64,000 nt of DNA. Source: an uncultured Candidatus Saccharibacteria bacterium (lineage in GTDB: Bacteria > Patescibacteriota > Doudnabacteria > UBA920). The stretch lies in assembly GCA_964594755.1 (NCBI GenBank), contig CAZQMO010000005.1:1144-65143 (forward strand). The letters are read 5' to 3'. The translations under genes and the position numbers were made by a program. Position 1 is the first letter of the stretch. Each line of letters begins with the position of its first letter. A model generated the notes under the pieces. It did not search any database and was not told the DNA's origin. It saw only the letters and a program-made list of their open reading frames with translations. Of the stretch, positions 3,916 to 53,874 are shown one piece after another.

Positions 3916-4320
3916 TTAGGTAGGTTCTACGATATTAATCTTCTTGCTGTCTTTGGTCAAAGTTACAATCGCTTTCTTAAAACCGCTGCGTTGGCCAAGA
4001 ACGCGGCCAAAACGACGGGACTTGCCAGCAACGTTTACCATGTTGACGTTGGCCACTTTTACGCCATACATCTTTTCTACTGCGCGGCGGACTTCAATCT
4101 TATTGAGTTTGCCGTAAACAGTAAAGATGTATTGGTTAAAGCGATCAACGAAACCTGCTTTTTCGGACACACGAGGAACAATCAAGCCTTTGTTGCCAAT
4201 ACCGCTGTGAGGAACGTCTAACATAACAGGAGCTGCAGCTTCGGTTGGTTGATCAGTAACAGGAGTTTCTTCTACGGTTACTTTCTCGTCAGTATTTTCT
4301 TTTTTAGAAAAAAGAGCCAT
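3916..4320 (-). CDS. rplW: 50S ribosomal protein L23; start uncertain, possibly the internal Met near 4224
   Basis: The core [10 protein letters not shown]...[10 protein letters not shown] is L23-like. The ORF carries a ~32-aa acidic N-terminal extension that may not be translated. Confidence 0.85.
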
Positions 4321-4493
4321 GTCGTCGTCCTTGTCTTCCGGGCTATCGGTATCAGCTAATGCTAATTCCTATCGCCCTCCGCCAAGTACTCCTCTTAAAT
4401 TTTCGCTTAACTGGCGCCTTCGCTACGACCCTCCTCGTTACACTGCGTCGGGTCGGCTCAGGTTTAGCCCAAGCGAAAATTTATATTTAATGA

Positions 4494-7257: not shown

Positions 7258-8112
7258 TTATTCATCAAATTTTCTATTACCAAACATCAATAACTTTTTA
7301 CCTAGACCTGTTAAATTAAGCTTAGCTTTATCCAACTCAATTCGCTGTTGTTGTGAATCAATCTGTGACTGATAACGACGGACATGCTCATGGTTTTCTA
7401 AATCCTGATAAATATAACCTAGAGCGAAACTTTCATTTGCTGGTTTTTCCAAAAGACCCAATGATATCAAATTATCTAAATAAATACTGATATTATTGGG
7501 AAATTTTAGGTTAACTTTTTCAAATAGAATACAAAAATTTCTTTCTAGTAGTAAATACCCTTCTTGATTATTCCTGTATAACTTTATTTCAAGGACAGGT
7601 AAAGAACCTTTCAGATTCACTGAGGATAAATCAGCACTAAAGCCAAATTTAGATCTTATATCTGGGTCTAGGCCATCAAGATTCACCGAATTTTGTGATG
7701 AACCGATATGCTCAAGTATCAATATTTCATCAGAGCTTAATCTATTTAATATTTCTATAAATGTTGGAAGTACTCTACTCGCAGTATCTTTATCAGAAGC
7801 AGTCGCTAAAATCTTTGCATAATAATCAGAAACCACCGATTCATCTGTATATCGAAGTTTTTCTAAAATTGGAACAAGAATACGAGTATCAGGTTCTACT
7901 AAGTTCTGAACAGGAACATTCTCAAGATAATTTATATATTTCAGAATATTCATCTCTAATATTTCTGCCATTCTACCCACGGGTGTAGCAAAAAGTGAAA
8001 CACACTGTGCTAAAGATTTTCCTAAAACTCTAATTGACGGCTGAGCAGCATCTGTATAAACTTCTGCTGCATTAGCCTTTACTATTTCTTTTATCAACTC
8101 ATTTTCATCCAT
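7258..8112 (-). CDS. hypothetical protein, possibly of the Abi-alpha / DUF4393-like (abortive-infection) family
   Basis: AT-rich 284-aa ORF. The N-terminal segment AEVYTDAAQPSIRVLGKSLAQCVSLFATPVG resembles my recollection of the Abi_alpha N-terminal motif. This was not verified by any search. Confidence 0.35.
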   Translation of the reverse strand: MDENELIKEIVKANAAEVYTDAAQPSIRVLGKSLAQCVSLFATPVGRMAEILEMNILKYINYLENVPVQNLVEPDTRILVPILEKLRYTDESVVSDYYAKILATASDKDTASRVLPTFIEILNRLSSDEILILEHIGSSQNSVNLDGLDPDIRSKFGFSADLSSVNLKGSLPVLEIKLYRNNQEGYLLLERNFCILFEKVNLKFPNNISIYLDNLISLGLLEKPANESFALGYIYQDLENHEHVRRYQSQIDSQQQRIELDKAKLNLTGLGKKLLMFGNRKFDE

Positions 8113-8136
8113 AGCTTTACACAATTAAATCATCTA

Positions 8137-17841: not shown

Positions 17842-17910
17842 TTCGTCCAAATTTTACTCACTTGCTCGCGTCCGCTCCGCTATGCGGCCGTCTCGCTCGC
17901 CTGTTCGTAA

Positions 17911-18010
17911 AATTTCTCCTCTCACATTCACGCTTAACCTGCGTCTTTGCGACGGGCTTCGTCGCTACACTCCTCAGCCCTGCAAACACTCGGCCCAAGT
18001 GTGAATGTGC
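17911..18010 (-). promoter_or_regulatory. structured rpsL leader containing the conserved Box A / Box B motif, followed by a 9-bp stem that encloses ~50 nt between an AGGAG and the AUG
   Basis: The minus strand reads cacattcacACTTGGGCCGAGtg...GGTTAAGCGTGAATGTGagaggag. The same boxes occur upstream of tRNA-Arg at 53281-53324 and again at 53673-53699. Confidence 0.5.
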
Positions 18011-18374
18011 GTTAATGATTTTCGGGTGACACGTCCCAATTAATTTAATAATTACGCTACTTATGTGATTGACGTGAATTCGCGAAGACATACGCGGCTA
18101 TTTCGAGCCGTACTAATGGTACGGTGAGAAATAACGCAAGTATATCGACAAAGAATTCGTCCAAAGCTTTATCTGAGTCCAAACTTGTTTTGGACTGGAT
18201 AAAGCATTCACATAATGTAGCGAACAAAAAACCGACCCAAGAGTCAGTCTCTTTGGTTTCGCCAATTGGTACTGCCTGGAAGCCTTGCAGGCGTGATTCC
18301 CAATTTTGCGAGCAATGTGTCAGTAATTCCTTCAGTTAGGGGCTTCAAATGAATTGTGAATATATTATAAAGCA

Positions 18375-28940: not shown

Positions 28941-29009
28941 GGTTGTGGTCGGGATATTAGAAATCGAACCCAGTCTACACCCACACGAATCAAGTATTTT
29001 GTACTTGCC
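28941..29009 (-). pseudogene. degenerate tRNA-like fragment: diverged copy of the 3' half of the adjacent tRNA-Pro, preceded by a CAAGUA-AAAAU-UACUUG hairpin
   Basis: Reverse complement ...GUGGGUGUAGACUGGGUUCGAUUUCUAAUAUCCCGACCA versus tRNA-Pro ...GGGUGUAGACCGAGUUCGAUUCUCGGUACCCCGACCA. The T-stem is broken and no cloverleaf can be drawn. Confidence 0.5.
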
Positions 29010-29083
29010 CTGGTCGGGGTACCGAGAATCGAACTCGGTCTACACCCACCCCATGGGCGCGTACTACCGGTATACTATACCCC
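29010..29083 (-). tRNA. tRNA-Pro (anticodon GGG)
   Basis: Manual fold: acceptor CGGGGUA/UACCCCG; D-arm GUAU-ACCGGUA-GUAC; anticodon stem CGCCC/GGGUG with loop AUGGGGU; T-arm CCGAG-UUCGAUU-CUCGG; CCA encoded. Confidence 0.75.
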
Positions 29084-29171
29084 GACACCGGCAAGTACAA
29101 AATTTTAATGCGCTACTACTCCGCCGAAAGTGACAAAGCCACATTCCGACCAGTATGCTATATCCCGGTAA

Positions 29172-30118
29172 TTAAACTACTAAGTAATCGTTATTGCTAT
29201 CAGTTTTTTCTTCTGCGATTTTGTGAATAATATCTTCTAAGTCTTGGTCGCTAAAGAATTCAATCATGATTTTACCACCGCGGCCTTGGCGCTGAATTTT
29301 TACTTGCGTACCTAACTTGCCGCGGAGTTCTGTTTCTATGGCCATCAACTTTGGATCTGGCATGGCAGCATCCATCTTGCGGCGCTGCACTAATTCGCGA
29401 ACTTTAGCCTCCACTTGGCGAACATTAAGGCCTTGTTCCAAAACTTGGCGGTACATTAACAACTGTTTTTCTATGTCTGGCAAACTTAAGATTGCCCGTC
29501 CATGACCTTCGCTGATTTTACCTTCAATAATAGCGCGCTGGATTTCGGCTGGAAGATTTAATAAACGTAAAGTGTTGGCAATGCTCGGGCGAGCTTTTCC
29601 CACTTTTTGCGCAACCTGTTCTTGAGTAAGATTAAATTTATCGATTAGACGCTGGTAAGCTTGAGCTTCTTCGATGGCATTAAGTTCTTGGCGTTGAATG
29701 TTTTCAATCAATGCAACTTCTAGTTTAGTTTGGTCTTGCAAAGTCTTCTTAACTATTGCCGGAACTTTTTGTAGACCAGCCAGCTGCGAAGCGCGGAATC
29801 GTCGCTCCCCTACTACTAATTCATAACCGTTATCGGTTTCGGTTACGACTAACGGCTGAATCACGCCGTGCTCTTTAATCGAACTAGCTAGTTCTTCGAG
29901 TGCGGCTTGGTTAAAAATTTTGCGTGGTTGAAACGGATTCGGCACAACTCGAGCTAACTCAATTTCTTGAATCGTGCTATCGGAGTAAGAAACCTTTTCG
30001 GAATGCTCTTGGTCTACGACTGGCGCAACAGCCGGTGAAAAAGAAACAACACCAGAAGAACTATCTGGTGTAGCTTGATTGTTGCTATTTAAATCTGTGT
30101 CTGTTGGAAATTGGTTCA
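29172..30118 (-). CDS. parB: ParB/Spo0J partitioning protein (orphan, no adjacent parA)
   Basis: VVGERRFRAS ParB-box motif. Preceded by an HTH region and a Ser/Pro-rich N-terminus. The start was chosen at MNQFPTD; the ORF-track start at 30293 is an upstream in-frame extension that would overlap the tRNA-Leu direct repeat. Confidence 0.8.
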
Positions 30119-30124
30119 TTATAT

Positions 30125-30146
30125 TTGGTGGCCGAGGAGGGAGTTG
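30125..30146. repeat. 22-nt direct repeat of the tRNA-Leu 3' end (ttggtggccgaggagggagttg), second copy at 30337-30358
   Basis: Exact match read directly. The copies are 190 bp apart and sit immediately upstream of the parB start. Confidence 0.8.
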
Positions 30147-30337
30147 GTCACTTCCCGCTATTCTCCTCAGCACATTCGCTAAGCTCATGGAGCTTCGTCG
30201 AATTACGCTACAGCAACCCCTGTCGCTACTTAATGCTCCAAATAGTCGCATTAGGTTTCTGCCTTTGGCAGAACCGCTTTTCTTCAACTCCACTAGACCA
30301 ATCCCTGTTAACCTCGCTTCGCGAGTTTACCAGAGAT

Positions 30338-30422
30338 TGGTGGCCGAGGAGGGAGTTGAACCCTCACACCCGAAGATACACGATTTTGAGTCGTGCGCGT
30401 CTGCCAATTCCGCCACTCGGCC
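30338..30422 (-). tRNA. tRNA-Leu (anticodon CAA), type II with a long variable arm
   Basis: Reverse complement GGCCGAGUGGCGGAAUUGGCAGACGCGCACGACUCAAAAUCGUGUAUCUUCGGGUGUGAGGGUUCAACUCCCUCCUCGGCCACCA. Anticodon loop is CUCAAAA. Confidence 0.85.
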
Positions 30423-50369: not shown

Positions 50370-51335
50370 ATGGCCGACCATCGAACTAGAATCGACAAGT
50401 ATATCCAAGACTTCCTAGACTACTGCGAAATTGAGCGAAATAAGAGCGATTTAACAATTCGCAATTATAAGCACTATCTCGCCCGTTTTTCTGATTTCTG
50501 CAAACAACATAGTATTTCCCGCCCTGAAGACGTTGATTTAGATACAGTTCGCAGCTTCCGTCTATATTTAAACCGGTTCGAAGACGACAAAGGCCGTCGT
50601 TTAAAGCTGATTACGCAAAATTATCATGTAATCGCTGTGCGGGCCTTTTTAAAATATTTAGCTAAACGCGACGTTAATACCCTGTCTGCAGAAAAAATTG
50701 AATTAGCTAAGAATCCTAGCCGTGAGGTGTCTGTGATGACCAATGAAGAAGTTCAGCGCATTAAAGATGCTACAGCTGAAGAAAAGAATGAGATGAATCG
50801 ACTTCGTGATGCTGCGATCTTGGAATTACTGTTTTCTAGTGGAATTCGTATTTCAGAGTTGGTTCAATTAAAAATTACCCAGTTAAACTTCAAAAGCGGT
50901 GAATTCACAGTTCGTGGTAAGGGCGACAAGCTAAGACTGTGTTTTATGTCTGAACAAGCCATAAAAGCCCTGCAGGCGTATTTAAAGAAGCGCCACGACA
51001 ATAATCCAGCTTTATTTGTTAGTCATTCCAAAATCGGTAATTCAGTTGAAAAGCAAATGGAGAGCGTGGGAGGGAATAGCAAGGTTCCGGGGTTAACCGC
51101 GCGCAGTGTACAAAGACTGGTACAAAAATACGCCATGCTGGCAGGGATTATGCATAAAGTCACGCCGCATACATTCCGGCATTCATTTGCCACTGATTTG
51201 CTTCAAAATGGCGCGGATATTCGTAGCGTGCAAACCTTGCTAGGCCACGCCTCAATTACTACCACTCAAATCTATACTCACGTCACAAACCAGCAATTAA
51301 GGGATGTGCACAAAAAATTCCATAATAAAAAATAG
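50370..51335 (+). CDS. tyrosine recombinase of the XerC/XerD type
   Basis: 321 aa; N-terminal SAM-like core-binding domain; C-terminal HTFRHSFATDLL...LLGHASITTTQIYTHV (R..H..RH..Y). Confidence 0.85.
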   Translation: MADHRTRIDKYIQDFLDYCEIERNKSDLTIRNYKHYLARFSDFCKQHSISRPEDVDLDTVRSFRLYLNRFEDDKGRRLKLITQNYHVIAVRAFLKYLAKRDVNTLSAEKIELAKNPSREVSVMTNEEVQRIKDATAEEKNEMNRLRDAAILELLFSSGIRISELVQLKITQLNFKSGEFTVRGKGDKLRLCFMSEQAIKALQAYLKKRHDNNPALFVSHSKIGNSVEKQMESVGGNSKVPGLTARSVQRLVQKYAMLAGIMHKVTPHTFRHSFATDLLQNGADIRSVQTLLGHASITTTQIYTHVTNQQLRDVHKKFHNKK

Positions 51336-52272: not shown

Positions 52273-53229
52273 ATGTCCAAGAATTTTTGGAAAACTTTAC
52301 CTAAACCAATCATGGCCCTGGCGCCACTGTACGATGTGACTGATGAAGCGTTCCGACGCATCATCGCTAAGTACGGTAAGCCTGATGTCTTTTTTACCGA
52401 GTTCGTTTCTACTGATGGCTTAATGAGCGCTGGTCGAGAAAAATTAATCCATCATTTATGGCTCAGTGATGGTGAGCATCCTGTGGTCGCCCAAATATTT
52501 GGTACCAAGCCAGAGAAGTTTCGTGATACTGCCAAACTCGCAGGCGAACTTGGCTTTGACGGTATTGATATTAATATGGGTTGTCCTGATAAAAGTATTA
52601 TCAAAACCGGTTCTTGCGCCGGCTTATTTCACACACCAGATTTAGCCAAAGAAATTATTTTAGCTGCCAAAGAAGGAGCTGGTGATTTACCTGTGTCATG
52701 TAAAATCAGAATTGGTGACACCAAGGTTGATTGGCAAAACTGGATTGGGAAATTACTGGAAGCCGAGCCTGCTAATATTTCCATTCATCTACGAACTCGT
52801 AAAGAAATGTCTAAAGTTCCTGCGCATTGGGAACTTATGCCAGAGATTGTAAAATTTATTCACGATGAGACCACACCAGAAACAAGACCGGTGATTATCG
52901 GTAACGGTGATGTTGGTTCAGTACAAGAGGCGAAGCAGAAAGTTGCTGAAACTGGTTGTGACGGCGTAATGATGGGCCGCGCCATCTTTGGTAATCCTTG
53001 GTTGTTTTCTGAACACCAGCCAACTCGGGAAGAGAAATTAACAGTTCTAATAGAGCACGTTAAACTTTATGACGAATTATTTCACGACATCAAACACTTT
53101 GACGTGATGAAAAGACACTTTAAAGCGTACATCAATGGTTTTGACGGCGCAGCTGAGTTACGCGCAAAATTATACGAATGCAAAACTGCAGCCGAAGTCG
53201 CAGAGATTATTCAGGCAGAACTTGATTAA
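52273..53229 (+). CDS. dus: tRNA-dihydrouridine synthase
   Basis: 318 aa. LAPLYDVTDEAFRR...FTEFVSTD plus the TIM-barrel Dus pattern. Confidence 0.85.
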   Translation: MSKNFWKTLPKPIMALAPLYDVTDEAFRRIIAKYGKPDVFFTEFVSTDGLMSAGREKLIHHLWLSDGEHPVVAQIFGTKPEKFRDTAKLAGELGFDGIDINMGCPDKSIIKTGSCAGLFHTPDLAKEIILAAKEGAGDLPVSCKIRIGDTKVDWQNWIGKLLEAEPANISIHLRTRKEMSKVPAHWELMPEIVKFIHDETTPETRPVIIGNGDVGSVQEAKQKVAETGCDGVMMGRAIFGNPWLFSEHQPTREEKLTVLIEHVKLYDELFHDIKHFDVMKRHFKAYINGFDGAAELRAKLYECKTAAEVAEIIQAELD

Positions 53230-53250
53230 TTCTCTATTTTTCATTATAAT
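53222..53250 (+). promoter_or_regulatory. sigma70 promoter TTGATT-17-TATAAT driving the leader plus tRNA-Arg(GCG)
   Basis: ttgatt at 53222-53227 and tataat at 53245-53250. Places the Box A/Box B leader within the transcript. Confidence 0.6.
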
Positions 53251-53280
53251 TCTTTAGTTGTTACTCTAGACCATATTCAC

Positions 53281-53390
53281 ACTTGGGCCGAGCAGAGCGA
53301 GGTTAAGCGTGAATGTGGAAGGAGTAGTTTACGGAGGGCGGTAGAAATTGGCTTTAGCCGATTTCGTAAGCCCGAAGAAAACTACGACGT
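53281..53390 (+). promoter_or_regulatory. structured tRNA leader: Box A ACTTGGGCCGAG, Box B GGTTAAGCGTGAATGTGGAAGGAG, then a 7-bp-stem hairpin (GUAGUUU...AAACUAC) and CGAC immediately before the tRNA
   Basis: Same boxes as the rpsL leader (17911-18010) and as 53673-53699. Confidence 0.5.
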
Positions 53391-53467
53391 GCACCCGTAG
53401 CTCAGCTGGATAGAGCGTTCGCTTGCGGAGCGAGAGGTCATAGGTTCGAATCCTGTCGGGTGCACCA
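53391..53467 (+). tRNA. tRNA-Arg with the unusual anticodon GCG
   Basis: Manual cloverleaf: acceptor GCACCCG/CGGGUGC; D GCUC-AGCUGGAUA-GAGC; anticodon stem UUCGC/GCGAG with loop UUGCGGA; T AUAGG-UUCGAAU-CCUGU; CCA encoded. Confidence 0.7.
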
Positions 53468-53510: not shown

Positions 53511-53548
53511 GGCTCCGAAGCTCAGTTGGATAGAGCAGGGGCTTCGAG
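53511..53548 (+). pseudogene. tRNA 5'-half fragment: diverged duplicate of the acceptor, D-arm and anticodon stem of the downstream tRNA-Arg(UCU)
   Basis: GGCUCCGAAGCUCAGUUGGAUAGAGCAGGGGCUUCGAG versus GGCCUCGUAGCUCAGUUGGAUAGAGCAGGGGACUUCUAAG. No 3' half follows. Confidence 0.6.
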
Positions 53549-53570
53549 TAATTAATGAACTCTTGCTGAT

Positions 53571-53647
53571 GGCCTCGTAGCTCAGTTGGATAGAGCAGGG
53601 GACTTCTAAGCCCAAGGTCACTGGTTCGATCCCAGTCGAGGCCACCA
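53571..53647 (+). tRNA. tRNA-Arg (anticodon UCU), flanked by an 11-bp leader/trailer inverted repeat (53548-53558 and 53646-53656)
   Basis: Acceptor GGCCUCG/CGAGGCC; D-arm GCUC-AGUUGGAUA-GAGC; anticodon loop CUUCUAA; T-arm ACUGG-UUCGAUC-CCAGU; CCA encoded. The anticodon stem shows two non-Watson-Crick closing pairs in my fold. Confidence 0.7.
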
Positions 53648-53672
53648 GCAAGAGTTTATGGACAACTTTCTT

Positions 53673-53814
53673 ACTTGGGCCGAGCAAAGCGAGGTTAAGT
53701 AAAAAAGCTAAAGGAGTATCGGCGAAGCTGAGTTGCGACCCAACGAAAGTTGGCGTCGCACGGGTGCAGCCCGATACGACGCGGTCACTGGTTCGATCCC
53801 AGTCGAGGCCACCA
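53673..53814 (+). other. leader-like module (Box A, GGTTAAG, a GUAUCGG...CCGAUAC hairpin with an internal GNRA hairpin) fused to a 34-nt exact copy of the tRNA-Arg(UCU) 3' end (T-arm, acceptor 3' strand, CCA)
   Basis: 53781-53814 is identical to 53614-53647. No matching 5' acceptor strand is present. Confidence 0.6.
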
Positions 53815-53874
53815 GTTCAATTGTTACCATAAACATTTCCCTATCGTTATAAATGTGAGTAACAAAGGAGTTTA

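Follow-up and report, generated by a model that had tools for sequence, protein, structure and literature searches.

The window analysed here, a continuous stretch of 64,000 nucleotides, contains three tRNA loci at which a complete tRNA gene stands beside partial tRNA copies. The genes for tRNA-Pro(GGG) and tRNA-Leu(CAA) lie on either side of a parB gene on the minus strand, while tRNA-Arg(UCU) lies on the plus strand. The features on which the analysis rests are as follows.

28946-28990, minus strand: 3' fragment of an older tRNA-Pro (anticodon loop to CCA), acceptor strand TATCCCG
28996-29103, minus strand: leader-trailer inverted repeat of tRNA-Pro, arms 28996-29021 and 29078-29103, 88% complementary
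29011-29084, minus strand: functional tRNA-Pro(GGG), acceptor stem CGGGGTA/TACCCCG, nested between the two older fragments
29141-29167, minus strand: orphan 5' fragment of the older tRNA-Pro (acceptor strand plus D-arm), acceptor strand CGGGATA
29172-30119, minus strand: parB, 315 aa, ParB/Spo0J-type, with ParB_N, HTH_ParB and ParB_C domains (TIGR00180)
30125-30146, minus strand: D2, a duplicate of the tRNA-Leu 3' end, identical over 22 nt from the T-loop through the CCA and the following A
30147-30336, minus strand: L-type structured spacer, with P1 hairpin (30301-30337), UGGU (30297-30300), anti-T-loop (30283-30291) and then a conserved core
30338-30422, minus strand: intact tRNA-Leu(CAA), CCA encoded; its last 21 nt plus one base form D1 (30337-30358)
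50370-51335, plus strand: Xer-like tyrosine recombinase (best matches XerC/XerD)
53266-53390, plus strand: E1, an E-type structured motif between a promoter-like site (53222-53250) and tRNA-Arg(GCG)
53391-53467, plus strand: tRNA-Arg(GCG)
53511-53545, plus strand: orphan 5'-half copy of tRNA-Arg(UCU), to the anticodon loop, 90% identical over 53511-53541
53555-53577 and 53637-53659, plus strand: leader-trailer arms of tRNA-Arg(UCU), 91% complementary (whole inverted repeat 53555-53659)
53571-53647, plus strand: tRNA-Arg(UCU)
53658-53782, plus strand: E2, an E-type structured motif that fills the gap between tRNA-Arg(UCU) and the duplicate of its 3' end
53783-53815, plus strand: duplicate of the tRNA-Arg(UCU) 3' end, identical over 33 nt from the variable loop through the CCA and the following G

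The direct repeats described in the initial annotation are real. At tRNA-Leu, the segments 30125-30146 and 30337-30358 are identical at all 22 positions, spanning the T-loop to the CCA and one further base, and D2 ends 6 nt before the parB ATG (30119). The 3'-end copy of tRNA-Arg(UCU) was also found, with 33/33 identity between 53783-53815 and 53616-53648, although it had been placed 1–2 nt off, at 53781-53814. The diverged copy of the 3' half of tRNA-Pro begins 26 nt past the functional gene and is 79% identical to it over 39 nt (28946-28984 against 29011-29049). Exact repeats of 22 and 33 nt are far beyond what chance would produce. Between the members of the repeat pairs lie 28–190 nt of non-coding, structured sequence, and nothing else.

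The initial annotation had overlooked the orphan 5' fragments of tRNA-Pro and tRNA-Arg(UCU), the leader-trailer stems and the structured nature of the spacers. Inverted repeats of 23–26 nt prolong the acceptor stems of both tRNA-Pro and tRNA-Arg(UCU), and for tRNA-Pro the arms are predicted by folding to lengthen the stem to a helix of ∼26 bp. The breakpoints of the fragments are scattered, falling at about tRNA positions 15, 20, 22, 24, 35, 45, 57 and 63, with the 5' fragments terminating at about positions 15–35. The window and the related locus L005 (related loci are denoted by L and a number) share a repeat that sets in at the T-loop, and in L003, L020 and L023 it starts at other positions; several families may be involved. 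Among the relatives, L023 carries a partial tRNA-Leu duplication in the form of an 88-bp tandem, and L279 an orphan 5' tRNA-Leu fragment. We found no description of these arrangements in the literature.

The absence of a parA partner near parB had been taken to suggest that parB might be cargo or a remnant of an integrative element. The absence itself was borne out, as a tblastn search with Bacillus subtilis Soj gave no match in the 64-kb window or in ∼40 related loci with flanks of 1.5–4 kb; parB without ParA is the norm in this lineage. A search of the window for parS (TGTTTCACGTGAAACA-like) found none at up to 3 mismatches. The window ParB scores 192 bits against TIGR00180, and its domains (PF02195, PF17762 and PF23552) are taken from precomputed Pfam assignments to a 100%-identical database protein, P0001. 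Its homologues are from Patescibacteria/Doudnabacteria, and the genome itself belongs to Patescibacteria and resembles Doudnabacteria; exact-sequence look-ups of the window ParB and of S12 returned no record. The relatives have in common the order SHMT-BacA-PAP2-tRNA-Leu(CAA)-parB-(tRNA-Pro)-MazG/dUTPase-VIT1, and the pairing of tRNA-Leu with parB, together with the housekeeping flanks, is kept down to 52% ParB identity. Because gene order is conserved in this way across the relatives, parB is a native chromosomal gene, and the suggestion that it is cargo is contradicted.

In this lineage tRNA-Leu(CAA) and parB constitute one tight unit that is probably co-transcribed, and in which the ATG lies 4–30 nt past the CCA. 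There is a promoter-like site at 30479-30451, and no consensus promoter of parB's own is present between the two genes. In many relatives that have no spacer, the parB ATG follows the tRNA-Leu CCA by 4–6 nt, so that the 5' end of the mRNA is probably made by tRNA processing.

Comparison of about 45 loci shows that the junction immediately after the CCA is a hot spot, which is either empty or occupied by a free-standing LAGLIDADG gene or by structured non-coding modules of 130–190 nt. In L001, L266, L275/276 and L277, tRNA-Leu directly abuts parB. The empty sites that had been looked for in relatives are exact in L001 and L266, where the tRNA-Leu CCA is followed by AATATA and the ATG, and where ParB is 95–96% identical to that of the window. 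Compared with these two loci the window has 212 extra bases, made up of the 190-nt module and the 22-nt copy. Its tRNA-Leu is 100% identical to that of L001, and the sequence running from D2 into parB matches the tRNA–parB junction of the empty-site relatives, the 28 nt before the ATG being identical. The junction is filled by a 131-nt F module in L268, by a G module in L267, and by a LAGLIDADG gene (LAGLIDADG_3) spanning exactly CCA to ATG in L274, L009, L015 and L017. All three kinds of insert lie at the very same CCA junction, and none is accompanied by a tRNA duplication.

The occupant of this junction in the window is the L-type module. Read in the direction of transcription, it comprises a long hairpin right after the CCA, then UGGU (the complement of ACCA), a 9-nt complement of the T-loop (GGAGTTGAA, at 30283-30291), the conserved core, and finally the copy of the last 21 nt of the tRNA. 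Folding z-scores of the module range from -3.95 to -7.3, and the consensus fold has 9 compensatory pairs, a covariation statistic that is thin, coming from four L-type sequences. Apart from the window, the model of the module, R1, matched in three more distant species alone (L002, L005 and L014), once per locus and at the tRNA-Leu/parB junction every time; L001 and L266 do not have the module. The identity of the L core (84, 82 and 75%) tracks the nucleotide identity of parB (77, 72 and 70%). The module is old and has been diverging in step with parB in four species. An exact-pattern scan for GCGACTATTTGRAGC in a metagenome collection and in viral contigs gave chance matches alone, none of them module-like by blastn.

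The individual elements of the module are kept to different degrees. A complement of the locus's own T-loop, exact over 9–10 nt, is found in the window, L002, L003 and L014 (a match reached by 6–13 of 2000 shuffles in each case). In L014 it covaries with the tRNA (GGAATCGAA against TTCGATTCC), and in L005 it has decayed. The window, L002, L005 and L020 all have UGGU behind the first hairpin. The window and L005 retain an exact D2, which in each locus agrees with the variant of the tRNA found there; in L002 and L014 it has decayed. L005 is the sole locus in which part of the spacer is repeated, as a weak second version of the first hairpin. In the transcript, the first hairpin probably offers a double-stranded substrate for the cleavage that releases the tRNA 3' end, and pairing between the anti-tRNA segment and the downstream copy probably closes a domain that would restore the native context of a tRNA end before the parB start. 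The direct repeats around the module would also ease its precise deletion, which would account both for its scattered distribution and for the exact empty sites.

At the tRNA-Pro locus, the 5' fragment begins 4 nt past the parB stop codon, and its CGGGATA pairs with the TATCCCG of the 3' copy and not with the functional gene's CGGGGTA/TACCCCG. The 3' fragment has three transitions in the T-stem. In acceptor and T-stem the outer fragments resemble the intact tRNA-Pro of L274 and not the adjoining functional gene, which argues that the inner gene replaced an older one. The position 29141-29167 corresponds to the start of tRNA-Pro in L268 and to an orphan fragment in L274, where the 5' fragment is of the commoner CGGGCTG type; the leaders are homologous. 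The functional tRNA-Pro(GGG) gene with its own leader-trailer stem lies within the remnants of the older tRNA-Pro, an arrangement that probably reflects replacement of the gene and subsequent decay of the redundant copy.

At tRNA-Arg(UCU) the full gene is preceded by a 5' half and followed, beyond an E-type module, by a copy of its 3' end, which probably reflects the same pattern of duplication and decay. The spacers at the tRNA loci belong to structured RNA families. The E-type motif, hairpin-centred, intergenic, 120–170 nt long and found beside highly expressed genes, is present in four copies in the 64 kb, in both orientations. It also occurs before rpsL, rplW and tRNA-Arg(GCG), and E1, ahead of the last of these, has an orthologue at the same position in L282. 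One arm of the hairpin carries GTTAAGC and the other pairs with it via G.U, and the conservation of G.U pairs points to selection on one RNA strand. The idea that the E-type motif acts as a leader only is weakened by antisense copies beside tRNA 3' ends in L267 and L268. Neither the L-type nor the E-type module, each a structured RNA family of its own, has a counterpart in Rfam.

Several known kinds of element were considered and rejected. A group I intron is opposed by the lack of any Intron_gpI match, even with E raised to 10, by the uninterrupted tRNAs that stand before the spacers, and by the repeat itself, no rotation of which gives both a U at the 5' splice site and a G at the intron end; in the relatives, the LAGLIDADG genes stand free behind an uninterrupted tRNA. 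Matches to tmRNA, permuted tmRNA and Y-RNA-like models were all sub-threshold and overlapped real tRNAs. UGGU is present as in a T-box, but there is no T-box match and no specifier logic. The E-type hairpin is not a DNA palindrome of the integron attC type, because its second arm pairs through G.U. An IS200/IS605-type palindrome was considered for the two similar hairpins of the F module, which are not in the other copies. As for a MITE-like transposon, the L-type module has one copy per locus, at tRNA-Leu/parB only, and inspection by eye found no terminal inverted repeat or target-site duplication at the E-type borders.

The initial annotation read the repeats as the signature of insertion by a tyrosine integrase. 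The part of this reading that stood is that the tRNA-Leu 3' end is polymorphic, with an exact empty site and a repeat running to the CCA; the integrase, cargo and attP that should go with it were not found. The window has a single tyrosine recombinase, the Xer-like gene, which is 2 kb from the tRNAs, with a hypothetical gene and Dus between, and the order S15-Xer-hypothetical-Dus is likewise found in L280. No integrase, excisionase or cargo was present in or beside roughly 45 loci, nor any tyrosine or serine integrase within or adjoining the bounded segments or among the called genes of the related loci. The neighbours of the repeats are MazG, VIT1, DUF2207, PAP2, BacA, SHMT, Dus, pseudouridine synthase and C39 peptidase. 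The spacer and repeat gave no match in phage and plasmid collections, and the Leu and Arg tRNA 3' ends no exact match in IMG/VR, both weak negatives given that mobile elements of the candidate phyla radiation (CPR) are poorly sampled.

On balance, the partial tRNA copies were probably produced by local duplication, replacement and decay of tRNA genes, combined with gain and loss of spacers, rather than being att scars of integrase-borne islands, and parB is native. Some of the data fit it poorly. The Leu and Arg repeats are exact and lie inside the tRNA up to the CCA(+1), which is the classic appearance of attL and attR, and duplication and decay alone predict no boundary at the CCA. A plain tandem duplication at tRNA-Leu would have repeated the spacer too, which is not seen apart from the hairpin copy in L005. 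Vertical descent of the L module requires at least four or five independent losses among closer relatives, and the identity of D1 and D2, kept in both the window and L005 at ∼28% parB divergence, would need gene conversion or selection. The boundary at the CCA(+1) is what one would expect if elements had entered the tRNA genes via a tyrosine integrase, supplied replacement tRNA 3' ends or whole tRNAs, and then lost all but short arms, leaving CIME-like remnants between attL and attR. That origin would suit the start of the Leu repeat in the T-loop, reportedly the classic crossover location in the Williams classification of 2002, as well as the precise empty site and the different inserts at the same junction in different species. 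An element that split a single-copy tRNA but brought a whole replacement would in addition explain the nested Pro and Arg genes, since the replacement could never be lost afterwards. Nevertheless, we regard such an origin as unlikely. Besides the missing integrase, excisionase, cargo and attP-like matches and the syntenic position of the sole, Xer-like recombinase, the inserts are 28–190 nt long and the one at tRNA-Leu is a folded RNA, conserved and diverging in step with the host. The F, G and endonuclease inserts occupy the same junction without a repeat, breakpoints ranging from ∼15 to 63 misfit one fixed crossover site, and orphan 5' fragments are not made by att recombination at a 3' end.

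It is also conceivable, if distinctly unlikely, that the arrangement at tRNA-Leu is a functional, cis-acting RNA device, in which the 3'-end copy and the anti-tRNA segment are under selection. The folded spacer would place an imitation of a tRNA 3' end before the parB AUG, where the enzymes of tRNA 3' processing would cut, to give the same short-leader parB mRNA as in the spacer-less relatives; the anti-T-loop and UGGU would close the mimic or pair transiently with the real tRNA. The exact anti-T-loop in four of five modules, its covariation with the tRNA in L014, the recurrence of UGGU, the match of D2 to its own T-loop variant in L005, the identity of the 28 nt before the ATG with the empty-site relatives, the 4–6-nt spacing where there is no spacer and the lack of a separate consensus promoter for parB would all be accommodated. 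However, the decay of D2 in L002 and L014 and of the anti-T-loop in L005 means that neither is indispensable, and parB is intact behind the F, G and endonuclease inserts, which have no such copy. Moreover, the Rfam tRNA model does not pick up the spacer with D2, even at E-values as high as 10, and in the minimum-energy fold part of D2 is paired differently. We consider it very improbable that the duplications and small inserts arose by repair of breaks, with a LAGLIDADG enzyme cutting the junction in genomes that do not carry its gene and template switching or capture of filler following. The exact placement of LAGLIDADG_3 between the CCA and the parB ATG in four relatives, and the highly polymorphic occupancy of the junction, would suit such an enzyme. 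Yet D2 with the parB start recreates an intact junction, so that the insert gives no protection against cutting, similar Pro and Arg fragments occur where no endonuclease is seen, and the conserved, structured L module is unlike random filler.

The arrangements in the window have points of contact with several known systems. The window shares with tRNA-targeting att sites and with integrase-less remnants (genomic-island scars, CIME) the 3'-end direct repeat around an insert and the exact empty site; it differs from them in having no integrase or cargo, inserts of 28–190 nt, a conserved RNA, orphan 5' fragments and unfixed breakpoints. At the minimal mobile element sites of Neisseria, cassettes are swapped between two conserved genes by homologous recombination. 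The tRNA-Leu/parB junction is likewise a fixed site with alternative occupants and no dedicated recombinase, although most of its occupants are non-coding structured modules and not genes. Small palindromic repeats are familiar from compact genomes, as in the Correia/NEMIS elements of Neisseria, the Rickettsia palindromic elements and REP/BIME. The E-type motif resembles these in being multi-copy, hairpin-built, intergenic and present in both orientations, and differs in that neither terminal inverted repeats nor target duplications could be recognised; the L-type module differs in being single-copy and restricted to one locus. As with tRNA pseudogene fragments, a full gene is flanked by 5' and 3' remnants (at Pro and Arg(UCU), and in L023, L274 and L279), here with the new tRNA-Pro inside the old gene and with long leader-trailer stems on both new genes. 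Finally, tRNAs punctuate polycistronic transcripts in mitochondria, and tRNA–mRNA co-transcripts occur in bacteria; parB placed 4–6 nt past the tRNA-Leu CCA in many relatives recalls this arrangement and suggests that the 5' end of the mRNA may be set by processing of the tRNA.

The practical consequence is that direct repeats of tRNA 3' ends are, on their own, an unsafe signal for islands in CPR genomes, as a repeat-based island scan would mislabel a core partition gene as cargo. The loci also illustrate the turnover of single-copy tRNA genes in very small genomes, where a gene acquires a new copy within or next to itself and then degenerates, and they reveal a homing-endonuclease hot spot at the tRNA-Leu/parB junction. 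A more speculative proposal, to which we give little credence at present, is that the L-type module may be a new cis-acting RNA that pairs with the T-loop and CCA of tRNA-Leu, or with its own copy of them, and rebuilds a 3'-end mimic before parB, from which the enzymes of tRNA processing would make a near-leaderless mRNA. If this were true, expression of a chromosome-partition protein would be tied to tRNA maturation in a minimal genome and, together with the E-type motifs before rpsL, rplW and tRNA-Arg, the module would point to lineage-specific RNA-processing modules in Patescibacteria.

Four tRNA genes in the window are called by both ARAGORN and Rfam; they are listed here with parB.

29011–29084, minus strand, tRNA-Pro(GGG)
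29172–30119, minus strand, parB (315 aa), its ATG 6 nt past the tRNA-Leu copy
30338–30422, minus strand, tRNA-Leu(CAA)
53391–53467, plus strand, tRNA-Arg(GCG)
53571–53647, plus strand, tRNA-Arg(UCU)

The 3′ copies reported in the initial annotation are all present: an exact copy of the tRNA-Leu end (30125–30146 against 30337–30358, 22/22), an exact copy of the tRNA-Arg(UCU) end (53783–53815 against 53616–53648, 33/33) and a diverged tRNA-Pro copy (28946–28984 against 29011–29049, 79% over 39 nt). It had overlooked a 5′-half copy of tRNA-Arg(UCU) at 53511–53541 and a 5′ tRNA-Pro fragment at 29141–29167 (minus strand), whose acceptor strand, CGGGATA, complements the TATCCCG of the downstream 3′ copy and not the functional gene. 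Also overlooked were 23–26-nt inverted repeats that lengthen the acceptor stems of both tRNA-Pro and tRNA-Arg(UCU), and the nature of the spacers, which fold much better than their shuffled counterparts and are members of recurrent families.

For comparison we used individual loci only, taken from one genome per species together with contigs encoding ParB homologues. The suggested comparison with relatives does reveal empty sites. In the related loci L001 and L266, whose ParB is 96% and 95% identical to that of the window (parB DNA about 86%), the tRNA has ...CTCGGCCACCA as its 3′ terminus, directly followed by AATATA-ATG of parB; the window shares both flanks, with 212 additional bases between them, namely the 190-nt spacer and the 22-nt copy. 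The junctions of L275/276 and L277 are empty too. At this exact point L268–273 carry a 131-nt module, F, without tRNA duplication, L267 and L003 carry a module G, L020 and L022 have terminator-like hairpins, and in L023 the tRNA itself is partly duplicated in tandem over 88 bp. In four further species a free-standing LAGLIDADG_3 homing-endonuclease gene (∼200 aa) spans the interval from the tRNA-Leu(CAA) CCA to the parB ATG (L274 1906–2504, L009 3087–3683, L015 3393–3986 and L017 3317–3889), which implies a putative homing site at the junction. Compared across these loci, the junction is a hot spot of insertion/deletion polymorphism.

The G family (CTTCTTCGCT...GCGAAGAAGTG...), the third small module family, lies immediately 3′ of the CCA of differing tRNAs between species: after tRNA-Leu in L267 (1–88) and L003 (3879–4000), and after tRNA-Pro in L274 (3633–3745). 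The F module, too, is found 3′ of tRNA-Leu in L268 and 3′ of tRNA-Pro in L267.

The window spacer, here termed L-type, has homologues in L002, L005 and L014, each lying at this junction. A covariance model built on these four sequences, all there were, matched only its four sources in a 315-kb set of related sequence that contained the complete window; the module is locus-specific and not dispersed. Rfam gave no family match, even at E up to 10, and a metagenome pattern scan gave chance matches only. Core identity to the window (84%, 82% and 75%) tracks parB DNA identity (77%, 72% and 70%), a divergence that fits constrained vertical inheritance in which the module was lost repeatedly, such loss being easy because the module is flanked by direct repeats. 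Immediately 3′ of the CCA is a long hairpin in which the pairing, but not the sequence, is conserved between species; the module also contains UGGU, the complement of ACCA. At 46–54 nt past the CCA, a stretch of 9–10 nt exactly complements the T-loop and the first T-stem bases of the tRNA to which the module belongs. This stretch reads GGAGTTGAA in the window, L002 and L003, and GGAATCGAA in L014, where the tRNA reads TTCGATTCC; it is degenerate in L005. Its length was matched by only 6–13 of 2000 shuffles per case. A conserved core follows, with the hairpin loop GACUAUUUGGA and a closing helix using the 3′-terminal GGUGACC, and the last part of the module is the tRNA-end copy. This copy is exact in the window and L005, where it carries that locus's own T-loop variant, and has decayed to 5–7 nt in L002 and L014.

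The initial annotation had proposed that parB, lacking a nearby parA, might be cargo of an integrated element. The first part holds: tblastn with B. subtilis Soj detected ParA neither in the window nor in the related loci fetched, and no parS-like site occurs within the 64-kb window. The cargo proposal is contradicted by gene order. ParB homologues come from Patescibacteria, mostly MAGs labelled Doudnabacteria or Saccharibacteria, and the loci fetched have the order SHMT-BacA-PAP2-tRNA-Leu(CAA)-parB-(tRNA-Pro(GGG))-MazG or dUTPase-VIT1. Nearly all relatives, to as low as 52% ParB identity, have tRNA-Leu(CAA) upstream of parB. From this conserved order and the lack of ParA in the relatives' loci, parB is a native, vertically inherited gene, and a missing adjacent parA is the normal state in this lineage. 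In spacer-less relatives parB starts only 4–6 nt past the CCA (L001 3994–4003, L266 2494–2503, L275 about 803–811, L277 about 1589–1597), too short a gap for a ribosome-binding site, which suggests a tRNA–mRNA co-transcript and a parB mRNA with almost no leader.

A single tRNA-Pro(GGG) with acceptor CGGGCTG lies 4–30 nt past parB in L268, L267, L005, L017, L019 and L277; none follows parB in L001 or L266. In L274 an orphan 5′ fragment of the CGGGCTG type is followed, after about 75 nt, by a full tRNA-Pro with acceptor CGGGATA/TATCCCG and T-stem CTGGG/CCCAG. The outer fragments in the window are of this L274 type by acceptor and T-stem; the functional inner gene carries CGGGGTA/TACCCCG in the acceptor and CCGAG/CTCGG in the T-stem. 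The stretch from outer 5′ fragment to inner gene also resembles that from orphan fragment to full gene in L274. The locus is therefore a record of serial tRNA-Pro replacement, with the displaced copy decaying. The 225-nt region is predicted to fold as a nest, the outer acceptor halves paired and the inner tRNA on a long leader–trailer helix. An orphan 5′ tRNA-Leu fragment (GACCGAGTGGCGGAA...) at L279 1275–1300, ∼65 nt upstream of the full gene, repeats the pattern seen at the window's Pro and Arg(UCU) loci.

The tRNA-Arg locus involves a structured RNA motif of 120–170 nt, E-type, with four copies in the window and three in related loci.

Window 53266–53390, plus strand, E1, abutting the tRNA-Arg(GCG) start
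Window 53658–53782, plus strand, E2, Arg locus
Window about 4321–4478, minus strand, between rplD and rplW within the S10 operon, abutting the rplW start
Window 17842–18012, minus strand, directly before the rpsL start
L282 3522–3692, plus strand, before tRNA-Arg(GCG)
L268 2373–2495, minus strand, antisense, adjoining tRNA 3′ ends
L267 1140–1256, minus strand, antisense, adjoining tRNA 3′ ends

The first hairpin shows compensatory changes at 10 of 17 pairs around an invariant core, CUU-G-GGCC paired with GGUUAAG. The core includes two G.U pairs, which points to selection acting on a single RNA strand. The motif further has a lower stem that covaries, a GGAG box, a second stem that likewise covaries, and a GGACGA-like end. 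Model matches were limited to these copies in the sequence set examined, Rfam holds nothing similar, and the motif is undescribed. The rplW (L23) frame (3916–4320, minus strand) begins right at the end of its E-type module, with ∼45 extra N-terminal codons ahead of the Pfam domain; the true start may be further downstream. Elsewhere among housekeeping genes, an Abi_alpha (abortive infection) domain protein (7258–8124, minus strand) is a possible phage-defence candidate in this small genome.

At the Arg locus a promoter-like site (53222–53250) precedes E1 and tRNA-Arg(GCG), followed by a terminator-like hairpin and an extended −10 box (recognised by eye), the orphan 5′ half of tRNA-Arg(UCU), the full gene on a leader–trailer helix, E2 and the 33-nt copy. 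L282 (Dus 84% identical) has the E-type module in the orthologous position before tRNA-Arg(GCG), with no tRNA-Arg(UCU) cluster after it. The contig of the closest relative, L280 (CAZBOT010000093.1), stops just past Dus. In the window this is exactly the place of the E-type and tRNA-Arg repeat cluster, which would fit interference of these repeats with assembly.

The tyrosine-integrase signature read from these repeats stands in part. The repeats are exact and terminate at CCA, the Leu repeat begins within the T-loop, and an exact empty site is known; the idea is attractive where an element splits a single-copy tRNA yet brings a whole replacement gene, since that gene would from then on be indispensable. 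The evidence against it is that neither integrase nor cargo was found at the loci, and that the window's sole tyrosine recombinase is Xer-like, lies behind Dus and is syntenic in L280. The spacer has no match in phage or plasmid collections, nor do the tRNA-Leu and tRNA-Arg 3′ ends have an exact match in IMG/VR. The inserts are very short, structured and conserved, no repeat accompanies the other inserts at the tRNA-Leu/parB junction, and neither the orphan 5′ fragments nor the scattered breakpoints fit the idea. We regard integrase scars as unlikely.

We lean, with modest confidence, towards local turnover of tRNA genes combined with an old Leu spacer that is repeatedly lost. A reading as a functional RNA device, and one through endonuclease repair, are kept as rivals, both compatible with turnover. 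Under the turnover mechanism, tRNA fragments would arise by local duplication or replacement of tRNA genes, the redundant parts then decaying; the Leu repeat would border an old, locus-specific structured spacer, which recombination between the flanking repeats would remove repeatedly. At the RNA level, the post-CCA hairpin and the leader–trailer helices may be double-stranded processing sites freeing tRNAs from longer transcripts. The anti-tRNA segment would pair with the downstream tRNA-end copy, closing the spacer domain and restoring the tRNA-end context usual before the parB start.
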